The position numbers and the translations under genes are program-made. A DNA stretch of 20,000 nt from an uncultured virus (IMG/VR IMGVR_UViG_3300047445_000292) (lineage: Duplodnaviria > Heunggongvirae > Uroviricota > Caudoviricetes): IMG/VR virus record IMGVR_UViG_3300047445_000292. One strand, given 5' to 3'. The notes under the pieces are model-generated. The model made no database searches, was not told where the DNA came from, and was given only the letters and a program-made list of their open reading frames with translations. Position 1 is the first letter of the stretch, and every line of letters begins with the position of its first letter. Shown one piece after another: positions 4,920-15,110 of this stretch.

Positions 4920-5377
4920 CAGCGGCGCCTGGGGAGAACTGGGCCAGCGAAATGCAGGCCCTGCAGGACCAGATCGAGCAGCTGGGTCTGGAGCTGGAGT
5001 GCGCCAGGCGCAACGAGAACAACGTGAACTACTGGTACGGTCAGGACGACGGCGTGCGGGGTGCGGCTCTGCGTTGGCATGAGGCGTTGACCTGCCCGAT
5101 CCCCAAGGCCGGCACCATGCAAGAGCCGCTGGAATCGCTGTATCGGCGAACCGAAGTGCTGCGCCAGGATCTGGCCTGCGCGATCAGCGACATCGCCCTG
5201 TTACGTGGCCAGAACGACGGCTACCTGCACCTGCTGCACGTCGTAATGGCGTCGATCGACGAGCACTGGGCGCCGCACGACCCCGTGTCGTCGAACGTGC
5301 GCGACGAACTGCTGGAGCGCCTTGGGCGATCCGCCAACGCGGCGCGGGAGGCGGTGGTTGCGGGGTTACGGCGATGA
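4916..5377 (+). CDS. Hypothetical coiled-coil protein
   Basis: ATGA overlap at 4916 and at 5374; heptad-like helices. Confidence 0.7.
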   Translation: MTAAPGENWASEMQALQDQIEQLGLELECARRNENNVNYWYGQDDGVRGAALRWHEALTCPIPKAGTMQEPLESLYRRTEVLRQDLACAISDIALLRGQNDGYLHLLHVVMASIDEHWAPHDPVSSNVRDELLERLGRSANAAREAVVAGLRR

Positions 5378-5601
5378 GCATGAACTACGCGATCGAGCAG
5401 CGCCTGCGGCTGATCGACTTCTTGCTGGAGCACTACGGCCACGTCGGCCGCCCGGAGCTGTGCGCGTTCTTCGGCATCAGTCTGCCGTGCGCGTCGAACG
5501 ACATTGCCGCGTACAACGAGGCCAACCCGGACAACGCAAAGTACGACTTCAAGAGCAAGCGGTGGGTGCGCAGCGCGACGTTCAAACCGCGCTATTCCTG
5601 A
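5374..5601 (+). CDS. Stand-alone winged-HTH resembling the N-terminal DNA-binding domain of CapW/BrxR WYL regulators
   Basis: EQRLRLIDFLL..YG.VGR.EL..FFGIS.P.AS.DI..Y....P.N..YD.KSKRWV....FKP.Y matches that domain; no WYL domain follows. Confidence 0.8.
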   Translation: MSMNYAIEQRLRLIDFLLEHYGHVGRPELCAFFGISLPCASNDIAAYNEANPDNAKYDFKSKRWVRSATFKPRYS

Positions 5602-5633: not shown

Positions 5634-5906
5634 GTGGAGACTGACACCGTCAAGGTGGGGCTGACCCCATGCGGTAGACCAAAGTTGACCTATGCCATGG
5701 AACAGCGAATGCGCTTCATCGACTTCGTGCTGTTCCACTTCGGCCACATCACCCGCAAACACCTGATCGAGTTCTTCGGTGTGACCTCGGCCACTGCCAC
5801 CCGCGATTTCGCCCTGTTTCATGAGCTGTACCCGGGCATGGCGCGGCTGAATCACGTCACCAAACTGTACGTTCCGACCAAGGAGTACAGCCGCATTTTC
5901 CCGTAG
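5634..5906 (+). CDS. Second stand-alone CapW/BrxR-like winged-HTH paralogue
   Basis: YAMEQRMRFIDFVLFHFGHITRKHLIEFFGVTSATATRDFALF aligns with the upstream ORF. Confidence 0.8.
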   Translation: METDTVKVGLTPCGRPKLTYAMEQRMRFIDFVLFHFGHITRKHLIEFFGVTSATATRDFALFHELYPGMARLNHVTKLYVPTKEYSRIFP

Positions 5907-6886: not shown

Positions 6887-7128
6887 TGAGCGCGCCGATA
6901 CGGTGCGGGTCGGAGTTGCGCAAGCTGATCGAGTTCGCCAAGGAGCTGGGCTTTACCTGCGAAATCACCGGCAGCAACCAATTGAGCTTTCGCCGGCCGC
7001 ACACGCGGTCGGTGTGGGCTTCGTGCACCCCGAGCTGTCACCACGCCCGCAAGAACACTCGCCACGACCTGTTGCGGGCCGTGCGCGAGGCGGAAACACA
7101 AACAATACATCAAAGGAATGAGCAGTGA
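6886..7128 (+). CDS. HicA-like (dsRBD-fold) small protein
   Basis: ELRKLIEFAKELGF..EITGSNQLSF....SVW.S.TPS....KN.R.DL.RA resembles HicA-like mobile-element proteins; the usual His is replaced by Gln. Confidence 0.55.
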   Translation: MSAPIRCGSELRKLIEFAKELGFTCEITGSNQLSFRRPHTRSVWASCTPSCHHARKNTRHDLLRAVREAETQTIHQRNEQ

Positions 7129-7418
7129 GCGGGACCAAGGCAGCACCAGAAATCGAATACCTCGGGCAGTTCATGTTCGTCCAACGCAAGGCCCTGCGCC
7201 TGACGTTGGACGACGTGGCCAAGGGGGCCGGCACCTCGAAATCCTACCTGTGGGAGATCGAGCACGGGCAGGCGGCACCGTCGTTCATGCTGGTCGCCCG
7301 CTTGTGCCAGGTCTTGTGCCTGGACATCGGCGGGCTGGCCGCCGGGGCGTTGAAAGTGGCTGAGCTGTGTGGGGAGGTCGAGCAAGATCCGGGGCAGCTT
7401 CATCGCTCCGGGGCTTGA
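7125..7418 (+). CDS. XRE/Cro-family helix-turn-helix regulator
   Basis: RKALRLTLDDVAKGAGTSKSYLWEIEHGQAAPS is a canonical HTH_3 motif; GTGA overlap. Confidence 0.9.
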   Translation: MSGTKAAPEIEYLGQFMFVQRKALRLTLDDVAKGAGTSKSYLWEIEHGQAAPSFMLVARLCQVLCLDIGGLAAGALKVAELCGEVEQDPGQLHRSGA

Positions 7419-8554: not shown

Positions 8555-8968
8555 CTACACCACCGGCCCCAGCAACACCGCCAACGCCTGCGCACAGCGG
8601 GCCTGAAAGGCTTGCTCCCCCAACGCCTTGCGCAGCTCGCGCAGCAGCACCAGGTCGACGCTGTTGGCCTCCAGCCGTTCGGCCTTGTGCAGCCCGGCGA
8701 CGTGGCGCATCAGGCGCTGCTGGTCGCGGCGCAGATAACGTAGCTTGGCGGTTGCGCGGCTGTACCACTCGGAATCGGCAAACGTGCCCTCGACCGCGCT
8801 GCGGCGGCGCACCAGGTCGAGCTTGTTGCTCAGCTCGATGATCGTCGAATCCAACGACACGCGCAGCGTTTCGCATTCCGGCAGGGTGGCCGGCATGTCG
8901 ATCATGGGCGGGCGGTGGTTGAGGTGGGGCGCAGCAAGGGACGGAGCAGCGGCGGCGGGTGCGTTCAT
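8555..8968 (-). CDS. Hypothetical helical phage protein
   Basis: 137 aa ORF; D.EWY.RA..KLR helical hairpin; start uncertain. Confidence 0.7.
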   Translation of the reverse strand: MNAPAAAAPSLAAPHLNHRPPMIDMPATLPECETLRVSLDSTIIELSNKLDLVRRRSAVEGTFADSEWYSRATAKLRYLRRDQQRLMRHVAGLHKAERLEANSVDLVLLRELRKALGEQAFQARCAQALAVLLGPVV

Positions 8969-9024
8969 GTAAGGAGGCCTGACTTTTTATAGGATGGCCC
9001 CCTTGAGTTTAGGTCAGGTCGCGG

Positions 9025-9267
9025 TTATCGCGGTCCCTCGCGCTGCGGGCCGCCGGGTTTTGGCCCGGCCACGGACGCGGCGGTGATGCCGGGGCCGACA
9101 ATCTCGATGCGCCCTTCGTCAAACCACTGCACCGGCTCCAGCTTACCGTCCACTACCTTCGGCACCAGGTTGTATTGGTCGCAGCCGGTGAGGAACTGCG
9201 AGCGCCCGGTGATGATGCCGGTGAAGCCGGTGACCTTGTCTCTGCCTTCTTTGCCTAACTCGATCAT
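9025..9267 (-). CDS. Conserved small phage protein (SH3-like beta fold)
   Basis: IELG...RDKVTGFTG.ITGR..FLTGCDQY.L.P...WFDEGRI...PGGP pattern; AAGGA RBS. Confidence 0.8.
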   Translation of the reverse strand: MIELGKEGRDKVTGFTGIITGRSQFLTGCDQYNLVPKVVDGKLEPVQWFDEGRIEIVGPGITAASVAGPKPGGPQREGPR

Positions 9268-9292
9268 GGGTCGTTCCTTGGGTTGGGTGAAT

Positions 9293-9556
9293 TCAGGCCT
9301 TGAGCGCGTCCGGCATAGGTGGGCCGCCCAGCGCTTCCCAGCGCCCGGGGTGCGCGTCCTCGACGGCGGCGAACAGCGTGCGCGCTTCCATCACCGCTTC
9401 CTCGGCGGTGATGTAGCCGTGCTGACGCATGGTGCCCAGCGCCGCCAGGTGCAGGCCGATCACCATCGCGGCCGATGCCTCATTGCTGCCGGGGAGGAAG
9501 TTCAGGCCGCCGCGCAGGTTGGCCAAGGTCTGTTGTTTGAGGTCGTTGGGGCTCAT
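9293..9556 (-). CDS. Small helical protein, tandem-array member 9
   Basis: ALGTMRQHGYITAEEA...AAVEDAHPG; AAGGA RBS; 4 bp overlap. Confidence 0.75.
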   Translation of the reverse strand: MSPNDLKQQTLANLRGGLNFLPGSNEASAAMVIGLHLAALGTMRQHGYITAEEAVMEARTLFAAVEDAHPGRWEALGGPPMPDALKA

Positions 9557-9789
9557 TGCGGGGTGTCCTTGTTGTGTTTGCGGTACGCGGCGTGCACGAC
9601 ATCCAGCAGGGCTTCGTGCTCGGCCTCACGGATCAGCCCGAGGTCGCGCAGGGTGCGCACCGTCGCACGGCCGGCGGTGAGGATCTGCAACGCGCCGTCG
9701 TCGCTGGCCAGCGGCAGCAGCTGGTCGAGCAGGTGGTCGAGGTGTTCCAGCAGTGCGGTGTACACCGGGCCGCGGTCTTGGTCGGTCAT
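9553..9789 (-). CDS. Small helical protein, tandem-array member 8
   Basis: TVRTLRDLGLIREAEHEALLDVVHAAY; GAGGA RBS. Confidence 0.75.
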   Translation of the reverse strand: MTDQDRGPVYTALLEHLDHLLDQLLPLASDDGALQILTAGRATVRTLRDLGLIREAEHEALLDVVHAAYRKHNKDTPQ

Positions 9790-10157
9790 CAGTGGGGTTT
9801 CCTCAAACCGCGTTCGCGGAACTCGGCCAGCACCGTGCGGACGTTGCGCACCAGTTCGTCGCCTTGGCCGGGGTTGGCCAGCAGCGCGTCGAGTTCGGCA
9901 CTGCGCAGCGGCAGCCCGGCTTCCAGTTGCGCTGCGAGGCTCGGGTGGGCGTCGGTGAACACCTTCTTGACCAACAAGGTCCAGTCCTTGACCTCGGCGG
10001 TGTCGAGCAGGCCGTCGCCGTGCATCTTGGTCAGGCCGCGCACCAGGGTGTGCAGGAGGAACATCGCACCGTCCTCGGTGCTGCGCTCCAGCAGCCGCAG
10101 GCTGCCCTGCAGGCTGTCGATCAGCAGCCCTCTTTGTGCTTGTTCGTCGTCAGTCAT
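9789..10157 (-). CDS. Small helical protein, tandem-array member 7
   Basis: GLTKMHGDGLLDTAEVKDW...VFTDAHPS; AGGA RBS. Confidence 0.75.
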   Translation of the reverse strand: MTDDEQAQRGLLIDSLQGSLRLLERSTEDGAMFLLHTLVRGLTKMHGDGLLDTAEVKDWTLLVKKVFTDAHPSLAAQLEAGLPLRSAELDALLANPGQGDELVRNVRTVLAEFRERGLRKPH

Positions 10158-10390
10158 GGTGAGGTCCTGGTGAAGTCAATGGCGTCACTGCACGGGCGGT
10201 CGCACCGGGCGTAGGCGGCGTGCACCCGGGCCAGCAGCAGGTTGGCCTCGGCGGCGTCGATCAGCTGGCGGTCGCGCAGCAGCCGAACCTTTTTCAGGCA
10301 GCTGCCGAGCAGGGTCTGGTGCAGGCTCGGCGGCAACCCGGGAAAGGTGTCGAGCAGGTGGTGCAGGTGGTCGAGTAGCGCGGCCTTCAT
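10154..10390 (-). CDS. Small helical protein, tandem-array member 6
   Basis: ALLDHLHHLLD...KVRLLRDRQLIDAAEANLLLARVHAAY; close to member 8. Confidence 0.75.
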   Translation of the reverse strand: MKAALLDHLHHLLDTFPGLPPSLHQTLLGSCLKKVRLLRDRQLIDAAEANLLLARVHAAYARCDRPCSDAIDFTRTSP

Positions 10391-10779
10391 GGCACCACGG
10401 GTGCGTACACCGCGTAGTGCCCGAGCACGTCGCCTTTCATGGCGTCGGCGGTTTCGGCGTCGACGTACTGCAATTCCAGCAGGCGATCCACGCAGTGCCA
10501 GCAGATCACCAGGTTGCGCAAGGCACGGGCCGGGTCGCTGGCGTGGCGAAACACCAGCGGCAGATCGGCCAGCCGCGCTTTCAGTCCGACCAGGTACTCG
10601 GCGCGTTCCTCGGGCGTGGCGTGCTCGGCGTTGGCCGGGACCATCATGTTCACCGACTTGGCGGCGTCGATGAATACCGCCTGCAACTCGGCGTCCATCG
10701 GCCGGGCCTCAAAGCGCGCCTGCAGGGCGTTGAGGATGGCGTCGGTGTTGCGGGTGATGATGTCTTCGATGGGGGTCAT
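10387..10779 (-). CDS. Small helical protein, tandem-array member 5
   Basis: ATG at 10779 with AAGGAGG RBS; CVDRLLELQYVDAETADAMKGDVLGHY. Confidence 0.75.
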   Translation of the reverse strand: MTPIEDIITRNTDAILNALQARFEARPMDAELQAVFIDAAKSVNMMVPANAEHATPEERAEYLVGLKARLADLPLVFRHASDPARALRNLVICWHCVDRLLELQYVDAETADAMKGDVLGHYAVYAPVVP

Positions 10780-11096
10780 GGCGCCTCCTTGCGGCTGGCC
10801 GGGTCGTAGTCGACGTGGCCGGTGCAATGCACGCCCTCCGGCGCCAAGGTATTGAGCAGCACCTGCTGCATCAGTTCGTCGATCTGCCCGCTGACGGCGA
10901 TGCGCAATTCATCCTCCAGCAGCTGCGCCACCTCCATCGGCCAGGCTTCGACCTCGGCCATCGCCAGCAGGTAGCCCTGCGCGAGAAAGCGCCGGTTGCT
11001 CGCCGCTTCCACTGTGGGGGCGAGGGTGACGAAGCGGATCTGCTGCCGCGCCATGGCGTGAAAGCGGGCGCGTTCGTGCTCGGTGAATTCAGGCAT
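10776..11096 (-). CDS. Small helical protein, tandem-array member 4 (most divergent)
   Basis: ATG at 11096 with GGAG RBS; AQGYLLAMAEVEAWPMEVAQLLEDEL. Confidence 0.7.
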   Translation of the reverse strand: MPEFTEHERARFHAMARQQIRFVTLAPTVEAASNRRFLAQGYLLAMAEVEAWPMEVAQLLEDELRIAVSGQIDELMQQVLLNTLAPEGVHCTGHVDYDPASRKEAP

Positions 11097-11406
11097 GGCT
11101 GATGTTCTCCACATGCATGCGCAGGGTCGCCACCAGGCCGCGCACCGAGGCGGTGTCAAAACGGCCGTCGAGGTAGGTGTCGAGGATGCCGGCCAGCAGC
11201 AGGTCGAGCATCTGCCGGGCCTTGTCAGCGTCGTCGGGGATGATCACGTCGAGCTGCACCAGCACGTCGAGGCGGCCCTTGAGCTGGGCGGCGTCGACGA
11301 TGGCCAGCAACGGGTCGCGCTGGTCACAGAAGGCATTGAAGCGCGAGCCAAAGGCGGCCAGCGCGGCAAACTTCGTGGTGTCGAGGTCCTTGGTGTGCTC
11401 AGGCAT
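11089..11406 (-). CDS. Small helical protein, tandem-array member 3
   Basis: GGAGG RBS; LKGRLDVLVQLDVIIPDDADKARQML. Confidence 0.75.
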   Translation of the reverse strand: MPEHTKDLDTTKFAALAAFGSRFNAFCDQRDPLLAIVDAAQLKGRLDVLVQLDVIIPDDADKARQMLDLLLAGILDTYLDGRFDTASVRGLVATLRMHVENISHA

Positions 11407-11743
11407 CGGGGGCCGCCTCCGGTTTGGTCAGGATGCGCGGCAGCAGCTCGGGGCGCAGGCCGGCGTACATGGTCACCACCTCGCCGACGATGTCCTTGGC
11501 CTGGTTGTCGGTCAGCAGCTCCAGGTCCAGCAGCTGGCGCAGGCGCTCACAGACCAGGTGGTAGAGGAATTCCCCGGCGTCCGGGTTGAGTTGGGGCAGG
11601 TCGATCAGGGCGCGGGCGTTCTGGCTCAGCAGCAGCTCGCGGTAGTCCAGGCGGCCTTGCGCGGTGTCGAGGTCGGGGCGGCCCAGCGAAAAAATCAGCG
11701 CGTCGAGGTCGGCGGCGAGCAGGGCGTGGTGATTAGTGGGCAT
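11399..11743 (-). CDS. Small helical protein, tandem-array member 2
   Basis: ATG at 11743 with GGAG RBS; RPDL.......DYR and RLRQLLDLELLTDNQAKDIVGEVVTMY. Confidence 0.75.
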   Translation of the reverse strand: MPTNHHALLAADLDALIFSLGRPDLDTAQGRLDYRELLLSQNARALIDLPQLNPDAGEFLYHLVCERLRQLLDLELLTDNQAKDIVGEVVTMYAGLRPELLPRILTKPEAAPDA

Positions 11744-12047
11744 GGTTGACGCTCTCCAGCAGTCCGGGGTGTTCGCGCTCGTAGGCGCGGGTGAGGTCGG
11801 CGAAGCCGAGCTGGATACGGGCGTCATCGAGCAGGCCGATGGCGTGCAGTGCCCACAGGTGCGTGACGATCCGGCTGTGCAGGTGCAGGGCGTTGTCCGG
11901 TGAGCGCAGGTGCAGCAGCTGCAACTGGCGGACGATGGCGATGAGCACGCCGCTACGGTAGTCGGCGGCGCTCAGTTCGTCGGTCAGGTCAGGGCGGGGC
12001 AACAGGTTGACGGCTTCGTCGAGGGTGATGACGGTGGCGCTGGGCAT
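11733..12047 (-). CDS. Small helical protein, tandem-array member 1
   Basis: ATG at 12047 with AAGGAG RBS; RPDL.......DYR and HLWALHAIGLLDDARIQLGFADLTRAYEREHPG. Confidence 0.75.
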   Translation of the reverse strand: MPSATVITLDEAVNLLPRPDLTDELSAADYRSGVLIAIVRQLQLLHLRSPDNALHLHSRIVTHLWALHAIGLLDDARIQLGFADLTRAYEREHPGLLESVNHAH

Positions 12048-12321
12048 GGCAGTGCGCTCCTTGCGGACGGTGTCACGGAATAGGTGGGGGCCTGTGTCAG
12101 CGGTGAGGGAACCGACACGGCCGCCCGGGACGTACCTGCCTGGGGGTCGACCAGGCGAACGGCAGCGTCGGCGCACGGTAGCACGCGGCTTGTGGGCTGG
12201 GGAATAGGGGGCTTGCGAGGAAAAAGGGTGAGCCCCGGCCGTCCCGGAAAAGCCGGCGGGGCTCTGCGGGTCAGCGATCTGCCAATGCACTGGCCCGTTA
12301 CGGGTACGGTAGCACGGGGGT

Positions 12322-12365
12322 GAGCCCTCGGCCAAGGAACATGGGGATGGCTGGGCCGAGGGCTC
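12322..12365. repeat. Perfect 12 bp inverted repeat GAGCCCTCGGCC / GGCCGAGGGCTC
   Basis: Arms at 12322-12333 and 12354-12365. Confidence 0.85.
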
Positions 12366-12801
12366 GGGGGTGGCGCCCCACCGTGTGGCATCGGGGTACT
12401 GCGGGCGCGGCGTAACCCTAGCACGCGGGTGGGGGGCTCGCCAGTGAGGGGGGCACCGGCGTCTCGGGGGCGGTTTCGGGGTGTTTTAGTGGGTCAGTAT
12501 GGGTAACCATGAGTTTGAGGGTGGTGTGGGAGTTGGCACGGTATTTTCCGGTGAGATTGGCCTTCTTATGCGATTTGTACACTGTACCGCTGGGATTTTA
12601 GGGCGGCTGGATATGGAGAGGGGGTCTAAGGTTCGGCCTGGCTCACCACTCGTCGGAAAAAAGTGTGGGGTGGGTCTTATTGGTACGCTATTCGCATGCA
12701 CAAAGGTTGTGCCATGTGCTGGTTATATGCTTGGTCTTTGTTGTCATAAAGCTTATGCGAAAAGATCATAGCAAAAAACGTGTGCCACTATGGGGTTGGT
12801 C

Positions 12802-12995: not shown

Positions 12996-13133
12996 ATGCG
13001 TTCTGTTATCGCTTCTGTAGTCGTGCTGTTAATCACCGCCATGCTGGCCGTAGAGGTTGGCGGGCTTGTGGGTGCGCGTATCAGTGCGCTAACTGACGCC
13101 GTGTCCCTTTCTTCACGGAGTGCCTCAAGATGA
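12996..13133 (+). CDS. Small single-pass membrane protein (45 aa)
   Basis: GGAG RBS; VIASVVVLLITAMLAVEVGGLVG hydrophobic; ATGA overlap with next gene. Confidence 0.6.
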   Translation: MRSVIASVVVLLITAMLAVEVGGLVGARISALTDAVSLSSRSASR

Positions 13134-14441: not shown

Positions 14442-15110
14442 ATGAGCGTTTTGACCGACAAACCACCCCTGCTGCCCATGGTTCGCGCCTACCTTCGCGC
14501 TTCGACCGATACACAGGACGCCATGCGCGCAAAAGGCGCGCTGCTTGCATTCGCCGAGTCCCACGGCCAGCGGATTGCTGCTTTTTACCCAGAGAACGAA
14601 ACCGGGACCAAACTCAACCGCCCGGAGTTGTTCCGCCTGCTCGATGACTCGCAGCCCGGCGACGTGCTGCTGTGCGAACAGATCGACCGGCTCAGCAGGT
14701 TGAACAAGGATGACTGGGAAACCTTGCGCGGGATCATCAAGGCCAAGGGGCTGCACATCGTGTCGCTCGATCTGCCGACTTCGCACCCGCTGATGTCGCC
14801 GCAGGGGGAACATTCGTTCACCGGCTGGATGCTCTCGGCGATGAACGAGCTGCTGCTGGACATGCTCGCGGCGATTGCGCGCAAGGACTATGAGGACAGG
14901 GTGCGCCGCTCCCGCGAAGGCATCGCGAAAGCCCAACTGATTCCCGGCAAGTACACCGGGCGCAAGGCGGACGACGCCCTGCACGCCAGGGTGAAAGCGT
15001 GCCTGGCCGCAGGGATGGCCATTCGCAAAGTGGCGACGGTGTGCGACTGCTCGAAAACCACCGTACAGAAAATCAAGGCGGCCACGGACAAGGCGCTGGA
15101 GCCCGCCTGA
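14442..15110 (+). CDS. Serine recombinase, resolvase/invertase family with C-terminal HTH
   Basis: RAYLRASTDTQD catalytic motif, ETG.KLNRPEL, GDVLLCEQIDRLSR, R..EGI.KA...GKY.GRK and C-terminal HTH; AAGGAGG RBS. Confidence 0.96.
   Translation: MSVLTDKPPLLPMVRAYLRASTDTQDAMRAKGALLAFAESHGQRIAAFYPENETGTKLNRPELFRLLDDSQPGDVLLCEQIDRLSRLNKDDWETLRGIIKAKGLHIVSLDLPTSHPLMSPQGEHSFTGWMLSAMNELLLDMLAAIARKDYEDRVRRSREGIAKAQLIPGKYTGRKADDALHARVKACLAAGMAIRKVATVCDCSKTTVQKIKAATDKALEPA

Follow-up and report, generated by a model that had tools for sequence, protein, structure and literature searches.

Positions 9293-12047 of a 20,000-nt stretch of DNA from an uncultured virus (Caudoviricetes; IMG/VR record IMGVR_UViG_3300047445_000292; the whole stretch is hereafter called the window) form a translationally coupled array of paralogous genes that belong to one new small-protein family. 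Preceded by a conserved leader, the array occupies an accessory region of a phage of ~80-89 kb with a PMBT3-like DNA polymerase, and related phages carry 5-11 members in the same order. The family domain is modelled as an ~70-residue up-down-up three-helix bundle. By analogy, we suggest, with a probability of roughly 45%, that the members make up a copy-number-variable panel of small acidic binders for host take-over or counter-defence.

The array consists of nine consecutive open reading frames (ORFs; m1 to m9) of 78-130 aa on the minus strand, all of which start with ATG and each of which overlaps the next (by 11, 8, 8, 4, 4, 4, 1, and 4 bp in sequence from m1 to m9), a layout with overlaps of 1-11 bp that an earlier note, made from the sequence alone, had described correctly. 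Shine-Dalgarno sequences of the GGAG/AGGA type are present upstream of eight of the nine genes (m6 is the exception), and the G+C content at third codon positions (GC3) is 0.85-0.90. Judged by start codons, overlaps, Shine-Dalgarno sequences, and GC3, the nine are real genes, with the following coordinates and features:

m1, 11733-12047, minus strand: first gene of the operon; 104 aa; predicted three-helix domain and N-terminal RPDL..DYR extension
m2, 11399-11743, minus strand: closest paralogue of m1; 114 aa; N-terminal RPDL..DYR segment
m3, 11089-11406, minus strand: predicted helical protein of borderline family membership; 105 aa
m4, 10776-11096, minus strand: probable distant family member with conserved C-terminal tail VHCTGHVDYDP; 106 aa
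m5, 10387-10779, minus strand: N-terminal extension of ~55 residues, then predicted three-helix domain; 130 aa
m6, 10154-10390, minus strand: minimal domain and sole basic member (isoelectric point, pI, 8.6); 78 aa
m7, 9789-10157, minus strand: domain and C-terminal extension ending FRERGLRKPH; 122 aa
m8, 9553-9789, minus strand: minimal domain, modelled as a three-helix bundle; 78 aa
m9, 9293-9556, minus strand: final family member; 87 aa

Seven of the nine proteins (m1, m2, m5, m6, m7, m8, and m9) are, at the level of sequence, homologous beyond reasonable doubt. In single-sequence comparisons, blastp paired m6 with m8 (45% identity over 60 aa), m1 with m7 (30% over 77 aa), and m1 with m2 (28% over 92 aa). 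Smith-Waterman scores set against 200 shuffles gave z values of 12.8, 9.1, and 7.6 for the same pairs and 5.7 for m7-m9, with a mean z of 1.75 across the 36 member pairs versus 0.04 across 126 member-control pairs. The two sub-motifs reported in the earlier note, RPDL(x7)DYR in m1 and m2 and ALL(D/E)HLxHLLD in m6 and m8, were both found.

Orthologues were gathered from a 5.8-billion-protein collection, where m7 as the only query retrieved 10 proteins; a profile of m2, m3, and m8 yielded 18 proteins of 737 candidates, and a nine-member profile yielded 65 proteins at E<=0.01 of 2990 candidates. An exhaustive search of 1.84 billion cluster representatives with the family profile returned 32 proteins at E<=1e-3, 28 of which had one of the nine as their best blastp match (E<=1e-3), the others being P0098, P0106, P0108, and P0066 (a member of the m4 group). 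Proteins were assigned to paralogues by best blastp match; three fused readings (P0016, P0017, and P0026) and copies with 98% identity or more to the window were excluded, and P0098, P0101, P0106, P0108, and P0112 were placed in no group. Including the window sequence, the groups held 14 (m1), 10 (m2), 4 (m3), 29 (m4), 14 (m5), 4 (m6), 13 (m7), 9 (m8), and 10 (m9) sequences; in one assignment round, m1 comprised the window sequence and 11 orthologues with identities of 63-81%.

Profile-profile comparison of these groups with hhalign gave probabilities of 98.4% for m6-m8, 98.0% for m1-m2, 95.3% for m7-m9, 95.0% for m7-m8, 92.3% for m2-m7, and 88.7% for m1-m7, followed by m2-m8 (82.7%), m6-m7 (81.0%), m5-m6 (78.4%), m1-m8 (70.2%), and m5-m8 (63.7%). 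Among the seven proteins, 16 of the 21 pairs exceeded 20% and 10 exceeded 60%, whereas all 36 controls with reversed profiles, which keep composition and helical periodicity, stayed at or below 3.8%. A bridging sequence, P0097, matched m2 (2e-9), m8 (6e-6), and m5 (2e-3).

The best pairwise hhalign value for m4 was 15.2% (to m2). Against the pooled profile of the seven groups (m8 core), m4 reached 51.7% (E 1.5e-4) over 63 collinear columns, with its residues 6-69 aligned to m8 residues 7-70; none of 100 column shuffles attained the real score of 25.7 (null mean 10.0, standard deviation 1.9, maximum 15.9), and under other hhalign settings the match to the family was 9.4% versus 0.1% for the reversed profile. 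At the turn between helices 2 and 3, where the window m4 has diverged, several of its orthologues read G-[GA]-[LM]-T-[ED]-x-Q-A. Given the profile match over the whole domain and an AlphaFold2 three-helix model, m4 is a probable distant member of the family. Column shuffles never matched the real scores for m5 or m9 either. For m3, hhalign against the family gave 2.6%, one of 100 shuffles did as well, and hmmsearch with the family hidden Markov model placed it (E 0.021) as the top non-member among 307 six-frame ORFs of the window. A collinear profile match over the ~65-residue core was thus found for m1, m2, m5, m6, m7, m8, and m9 and for m4, and both family and fold are near-certain for seven to eight members. 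The homology of all nine that the earlier note had proposed therefore stands firmly for seven and probably for m4, while m3 is borderline by hhalign, shuffles, and hmmsearch. A further candidate relationship, between m6 and the ORF at 383-745 (z 5.1), was rejected, as the family profile gave just 0.2% for it.

The three-helix scaffold that had been proposed from the sequence is borne out by AlphaFold2 models of two members. For m8, modelled with the 75-sequence family alignment (predicted local distance difference test, pLDDT, 85.6; predicted template modelling score, pTM, 0.71), helices span residues 8-27, 30-49, and 55-75; for m4, modelled with its own 29-sequence alignment (pLDDT 86.4), they span residues 6-24, 29-48, and 54-83 and are followed by a disordered tail. 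Both models share one layout, i.e., three helices of ~20 residues connected by a short turn and a 5-residue loop. A low-confidence ESM Atlas model (pLDDT 0.68) shows m3 as helical, with residues 1-78 aligned to a cluster of the ribosomal protein bS20 (template modelling score, TM, 0.68 for the query and 0.80 for the target in that row); the ESM Atlas gave no named relatives.

Foldseek searches of the two AlphaFold2 models against PDB and BFVD returned no match at E<=1e-3. Both result lists were led by three-helix bundles, and the bS20 chains 8cwo_T, 6ypu_u, and 6v39_t were common to them; m8 matched the bS20 chains with TM of 0.62-0.74, with all Foldseek E values above 0.2. VIA-align, which is independent of Foldseek, placed a designed minibinder (9q1v_C) at the top for m8 (Z 9.0, root-mean-square deviation 2.3, 68 residues aligned), and for m4 gave Z 7.9 to the same chain and Z 8.2 to ribosome recycling factor (RRF; 6vud_B); 17 of 50 VIA-align entries were common to the m8 and m4 lists. 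According to the tool's notes, values of this size are what helical bundles give in general. When PDB sequences were searched with the family profile, the best match was to the amyloid precursor protein (E 0.044) and was treated as chance.

Across 75 aligned sequences (m8 numbering), the conserved hydrophobic core comprises L14, L21, L25, A33, L47, L52, I53, V65, and Y69; position 10 holds a basic residue, Pro is frequent at position 26, the turn between helices 2 and 3 reads G-L-[LI]-[DT], and the Pro that caps helix 3 (the 'HP' ending, position 77) is present in 98% of the sequences. The proteins m3 and m4 stand outside this alignment and, by eye, have no obvious equivalent of the helix-3 Pro. 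Conservation at core-like helix positions was 0.80 within orthologue groups versus 0.57 between them, and at surface-like helix positions it was 0.70 versus 0.40; the higher conservation of surfaces within groups shows that each paralogue keeps a surface of its own. All members except m6 are acidic (pI 4.6-5.8, net charge -3 to -8). The domain can also duplicate within one chain, since P0108 contains two full family domains by the family profile, and P0016 reads as a fusion of an m4-like and an m8-like domain.

Two extensions of the domain are worth recording. The last ten residues of m7, FRERGLRKPH (9789-9830), are near-invariant in full-length orthologues that are 69-80% identical overall, and from their sequence look like a short docking motif. 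The tail of m4, VHCTGHVDYDP.SR (10776-10850), contains Cys and His, is disordered in the AlphaFold2 model, and is missing from several orthologues.

No member of the array had a significant match in Pfam, PHROGs, NCBIfam, or PADLOC, the last of which covers defence systems only, in agreement with the earlier note, whose author had not recognised the family, and our literature search found no description of such an array. The proteins therefore represent a new family with at least ten paralogue types. Among the 75 members, 18 Pfam families were matched at E<=1, the best being SHOCT (E 0.014, in one sequence and under its cut-off). Like the family, bS20, RRF domain I, and designed minibinders consist of three helices of ~20 residues running up-down-up, but they have no sequence relationship to it, and with Z and E values typical of any helical bundle the likeness is one of fold class only; bS20 (PF01649) had no Pfam match among the nine proteins or the 75 members, and eight of the nine array members are acidic, unlike the basic bS20. 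A more local resemblance exists to DUF2680 (PF10925) and SHOCT (PF09851), which share with the family the pattern L..L...G-x-[LI]-[TD]-x-x-[EQ]-A and a second helix after it. The family profile matches P0098 (E 5.4e-7) and P0106 (E 4.6e-5), both labelled DUF2680 by Pfam, in the hairpin of helix 2, turn, and helix 3 only and as repeats, and the repeats of P0106, like the family, terminate in H-[R]-P. However, the likeness is limited to this hairpin of ~33 residues and does not extend to the three-helix domain, and DUF2680 and SHOCT are bacterial repeat or C-terminal modules whereas the family consists of stand-alone phage proteins. DUF2680 (gathering cut-off 25 bits) matched none of the nine window proteins and none of the 75 members even at E<=1, and SHOCT matched none of the nine.

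As an arrangement, the array is closest to the mobD/tk.2 genes of phage T4 (Pfam DUF7438), which are likewise small, diverged, non-structural paralogues in one operon with orthologues between related phages. They differ in being a two-helix hairpin rather than a three-helix bundle and in belonging to another protein family (DUF7438, PF24219, had no match at E<=1 among the nine proteins or the 75 members), and for the array described here a comparison of complete genomes documents that members have been gained and lost. Large DNA viruses, too, have tandem families of small accessory proteins, e.g., the multigene family (MGF) genes of African swine fever virus and the 'accordions' of poxviruses.

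The phylogeny of the family was explored in a quick IQ-TREE analysis of 75 sequences. Each of the seven groups fell on one side of a branch, with Shimodaira-Hasegawa-like approximate likelihood ratio test (SH-aLRT) values of 99 (m9), 98 (m1), 98 (m5), 88 (m7), 86 (m6), 82 (m8), and 60 (m2), although this coherence is partly circular because the groups were pre-defined by best BLAST hit. Larger clades joined m1 with m2 (SH-aLRT 96), m5 with m6 and m8 (82), and, weakly, m7 with m9 (78). The duplications that built the array are old, since related phages carry separate orthologues of each paralogue, and in this respect the serial expansion envisaged in the earlier note was supported. The m6/m8 and m7/m9 pairings, together with gene order, suggest that a two-gene block (m6-m7) was duplicated to give m8-m9, and the tree and profile links suggest that a local expansion yielded m1, m2, and m1', an extra m1-type paralogue of related phages.

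A scan of IMG/VR with the m4 profile found eight related loci, in which synteny was kept on both flanks and array membership ranged from 5 to 11. No types other than m1, m4, and m9 are near-universal. The gene content is as follows (counts of family-type genes include the m3 and m4 types):

Window: m1 to m9; 9 family-type genes
L005 and L006: m1', m1, m2, m3, m4, an unrelated 106-aa ORF, m5, m8, m9; 8
L007, L008, and L010: m1', m1, m4, m8, m9; 5
L009: m2-like, m1', m1, m3, m4, a zinc-ribbon-like gene, m7, m9; 7
L003: m1', m1, m3, m4, m4', a zinc-ribbon-like gene, m6, m7-like; 7
L004: m3, m2, m4, m8-like, m5, a 168-aa protein with the domain, a fusion ending m8-like, m6, m2-like, m7, m9; 11

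The zinc-ribbon-like gene inside the array of some relatives (L003 4114-5037, L009 1845-2282) has no copy in the window; its product has a Cys-rich N-terminus and a conserved NHEWH..YD..GGY segment (compare P0017, P0101, and P0112), and in some gene calls this segment is fused ahead of an m8- or m9-type domain. In P0026, a metagenomic gene call, an m9-type domain runs into a Cpn10/GroES domain (PF00166, E 1.8e-11); a co-chaperonin-like gene probably follows the array in this relative, at the place held in the window by d1, the gene downstream of m9.

At the amino-acid level, the rate at which the array evolves is about double that of its neighbours. The median ratio of nonsynonymous to synonymous rates (dN/dS; pairwise NG86, window versus related loci) was 0.60 for array genes (28 pairs) versus 0.32 for flanking genes (77 pairs; Mann-Whitney p 1.4e-8, the pairs being non-independent), with a gene-wide average below 1. 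The diversifying pressure invoked in the earlier note is hence only partly supported, by the excess over flanking genes and not by the average itself, and the gain and loss of members between 5 and 11 is the clearer sign of plasticity. The highest values among the genes compared belonged to m3 (0.81-1.00 versus four relatives), yet its ORF, start, and coupling to neighbours are kept in L003, L004, L005, and L009.

Upstream of m1 lies a leader that is more conserved at the nucleotide level than the array genes downstream of it:

12048-12345, minus strand: ORF-free leader with CCGTGCTAxCGT boxes, GC-rich hairpins, and a strong Shine-Dalgarno sequence
Leader in relatives: L005, 6425-6730; L008 and L010, 7095-7400; L009, 360-665

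The last ~170 nt before the start codon are near-identical in the window, L005, L008, L009, and L010. The window leader contains three CCGTGCTAxCGT boxes, at spacings of 131 and 109 nt, versus 0.34 expected by chance. RNA folding of the leader was not significant (z = -1.47), and there was little covariation in the sequences compared. The leader may be a promoter/operator, a leader RNA, or a recombination anchor. In relatives, m1' is situated between leader and m1 (L005 6727-7038, L008 7389-7700). The window has no m1', and there the same leader and ribosome-binding site directly abut m1 (start 12047), so that, precisely at the start codon, either the window has lost a gene or the relatives have acquired one.

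All relatives of the array that were found came from contigs of uncultured phages, ~80-89 kb long and with a gene for a PMBT3-like DNA polymerase. Of the related IMG/VR records, three have a completeness rating of 100% (81.7-84.4 kb, with direct terminal repeats in two of the three), and each of these encodes a large DNA polymerase A of ~1200 aa, like PMBT3. From the matches to PMBT3 and related phages and from GC content, we infer a Pseudomonas-type host. Among isolated phages, by contrast, the array has no counterpart in our searches: megablast of 9000-12400 against isolated phage and plasmid collections gave no match, and neither did tblastn of m8 against isolated phages. In distant blastn only d1 matched, to Pseudomonas phage PMBT3 (72% over 186 nt), which has no array at the site of its d1 homologue. 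With m4 as the query against isolated phages, the only match was that of the C-terminal tail, which over m4 residues 69-104 shares 52.8% identity with a hypothetical protein from Pseudomonas phage Cygsa01. Scans of viral, genome, and metagenome contigs with m7 or the m7 profile found no true relative; the sole metagenome locus returned (L001) was, judging from its ORFs, a match by chance that fell within an acetyltransferase-like ORF of no relation. A search of 185,579 species genomes with the m4 profile yielded no relative.

The binder reading can be set out as follows. Each member would be a small stand-alone binder with a paralogue-specific surface that is kept by its orthologues; each of these surfaces would bind a different protein of the host or the phage; together, the members would act in host take-over or counter-defence; and members would come and go with changes in the hosts of the phages. 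The array's neighbours are small function-unknown phage genes, a helix-turn-helix (HTH) regulator, and a serine recombinase. A bolder version, which we consider possible though rather doubtful, is a natural 'minibinder library' of reshufflable three-helix cassettes, each neutralising a different host defence or factor; recombination within the collinear array and the highly conserved leader would swap these cassettes among related phages. Several points weigh against the binder reading. The AlphaFold2 models cover two of the nine proteins, and the modelled three-helix fold class is clear yet uninformative on function. Early expression is assumed from position, m3 may not belong to the family, and the orthologue alignments are shallow (4-31 sequences). 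In addition, NG86 is rough in this genome, where dS is compressed by strong GC3 bias, and the mean dN/dS of the array is below 1.

Among the other explanations we weighed, one would make the members subunits of a single hetero-oligomer, with bundles side by side and coupling fixing their proportions. The start-stop overlaps of 1-11 bp along the entire array, the common scaffold, and the natural fusions P0108 (two domains) and P0016 (m4-like and m8-like) would all fit such a complex, but gene overlap is commonplace in phage operons, and the complete related phages differ in their member sets (5 to 11, with few near-universal types), a variability that fits a fixed stoichiometric complex poorly; we regard this explanation as unlikely. 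It is somewhat less likely again that the members are antitoxin- or immunity-type neutralisers of a toxic phage or host protein, or act in superinfection exclusion. The hairpin of helices 2 and 3 also matches the DUF2680-labelled P0098 and P0106, and the validated toxin-antitoxin pairs listed in PMC10440598 include an antitoxin with the DUF2680 label. Against this, the operon has no toxin-like gene (d1 and d2, the two genes downstream of the array, are function-unknown PHROGs), none of the 75 members matches DUF2680 at E<=1, and there was no PADLOC match.

T4-type phages possess a variable internal-protein locus, and the members could by comparison be internal virion or ejected proteins that are delivered with the DNA and disarm host nucleases. 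The small size of the proteins, the variability of the locus, and an array that is collinear but changeable agree with this, as do weak structural rows to phage core or ejectosome proteins (9k2v_E, Z 8.3; 9vvp_I, Z 7.9). These Z values are nevertheless in the generic helical-bundle range, the array is outside any recognisable structural module, and no shared N-terminal targeting peptide is evident, which makes this account very unlikely. Still less probable is a role as nucleic-acid binders or regulators, e.g., acting on the conserved leader: bS20, a basic rRNA-binding protein, provides the top chains of the m8 Foldseek list (TM 0.62-0.74), and a strongly conserved leader precedes the operon, but eight of the nine members are acidic (net charge -3 to -8), the Foldseek E values are all above 0.2, and no solved chain had a sequence match at E<0.04. 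Least credible of all is that the shared motif reflects convergence of amphipathic helices and that no real family exists. Leu/Ala-rich composition, the borderline signal of m3, and the similar look of generic SHOCT/DUF2680-type hairpin motifs would speak for convergence; it is contradicted by the distance between reversed controls (<=3.8%) and real pairs (up to 98%), by column shuffles that stay below the real scores for m4, m5, and m9, and by intermediates such as P0097 that bridge groups. Generic convergence, with no profile similarity and differing folds, is accordingly ruled out for seven to eight members, though it may apply to m3 alone.

Small early or accessory phage proteins are the main source of new inhibitors of bacterial immunity and host machinery, and most of these are orphans that fit into no group. 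In the present case, one simple scaffold can be traced through at least ten paralogue types, which provides a comparative set with the same fold and different conserved surfaces, suited to asking what each copy binds. If the members inhibit different targets, the array would be a compact natural example of phages diversifying one binder scaffold, and if the minibinder library were true, it would represent a new anti-defence or host take-over family whose scaffold evolves much as designed binders are engineered. Should the members turn out to be ordinary, the analysis would still offer a clean definition of a protein family absent from Pfam and PHROGs.

The remaining features of the window are in keeping with phage DNA. 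Two genes unrelated to the family follow the array on the same strand:

d1, 9025-9267, minus strand: in the array operon; 80 aa; phrog_16275 (E 5.3e-29)
d2, 8555-8968, minus strand: last gene of the minus-strand unit; 137 aa; phrog_6158 (E 1.2e-6)

A d2 gene is 3' of the array in six of the eight related loci, and the d1 homologue in Pseudomonas phage PMBT3 sits amid replication and nucleotide-metabolism genes. Upstream of m1, ~1.1 kb without a convincing ORF precedes a plus-strand unit that begins at 13130. The phage nature of the window is evident from a GH108 endolysin with a peptidoglycan-binding domain (769-1353); the window also encodes an XRE-type HTH protein (7125-7418) and a serine recombinase (14442-15110), and several further genes match function-unknown PHROGs. 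Finally, two adjacent plus-strand genes (5374-5601 and 5634-5906) are clear paralogues of each other (Smith-Waterman z 32.8) and represent a second tandem duplication, unrelated to the array, with 69-99% identity in related loci.

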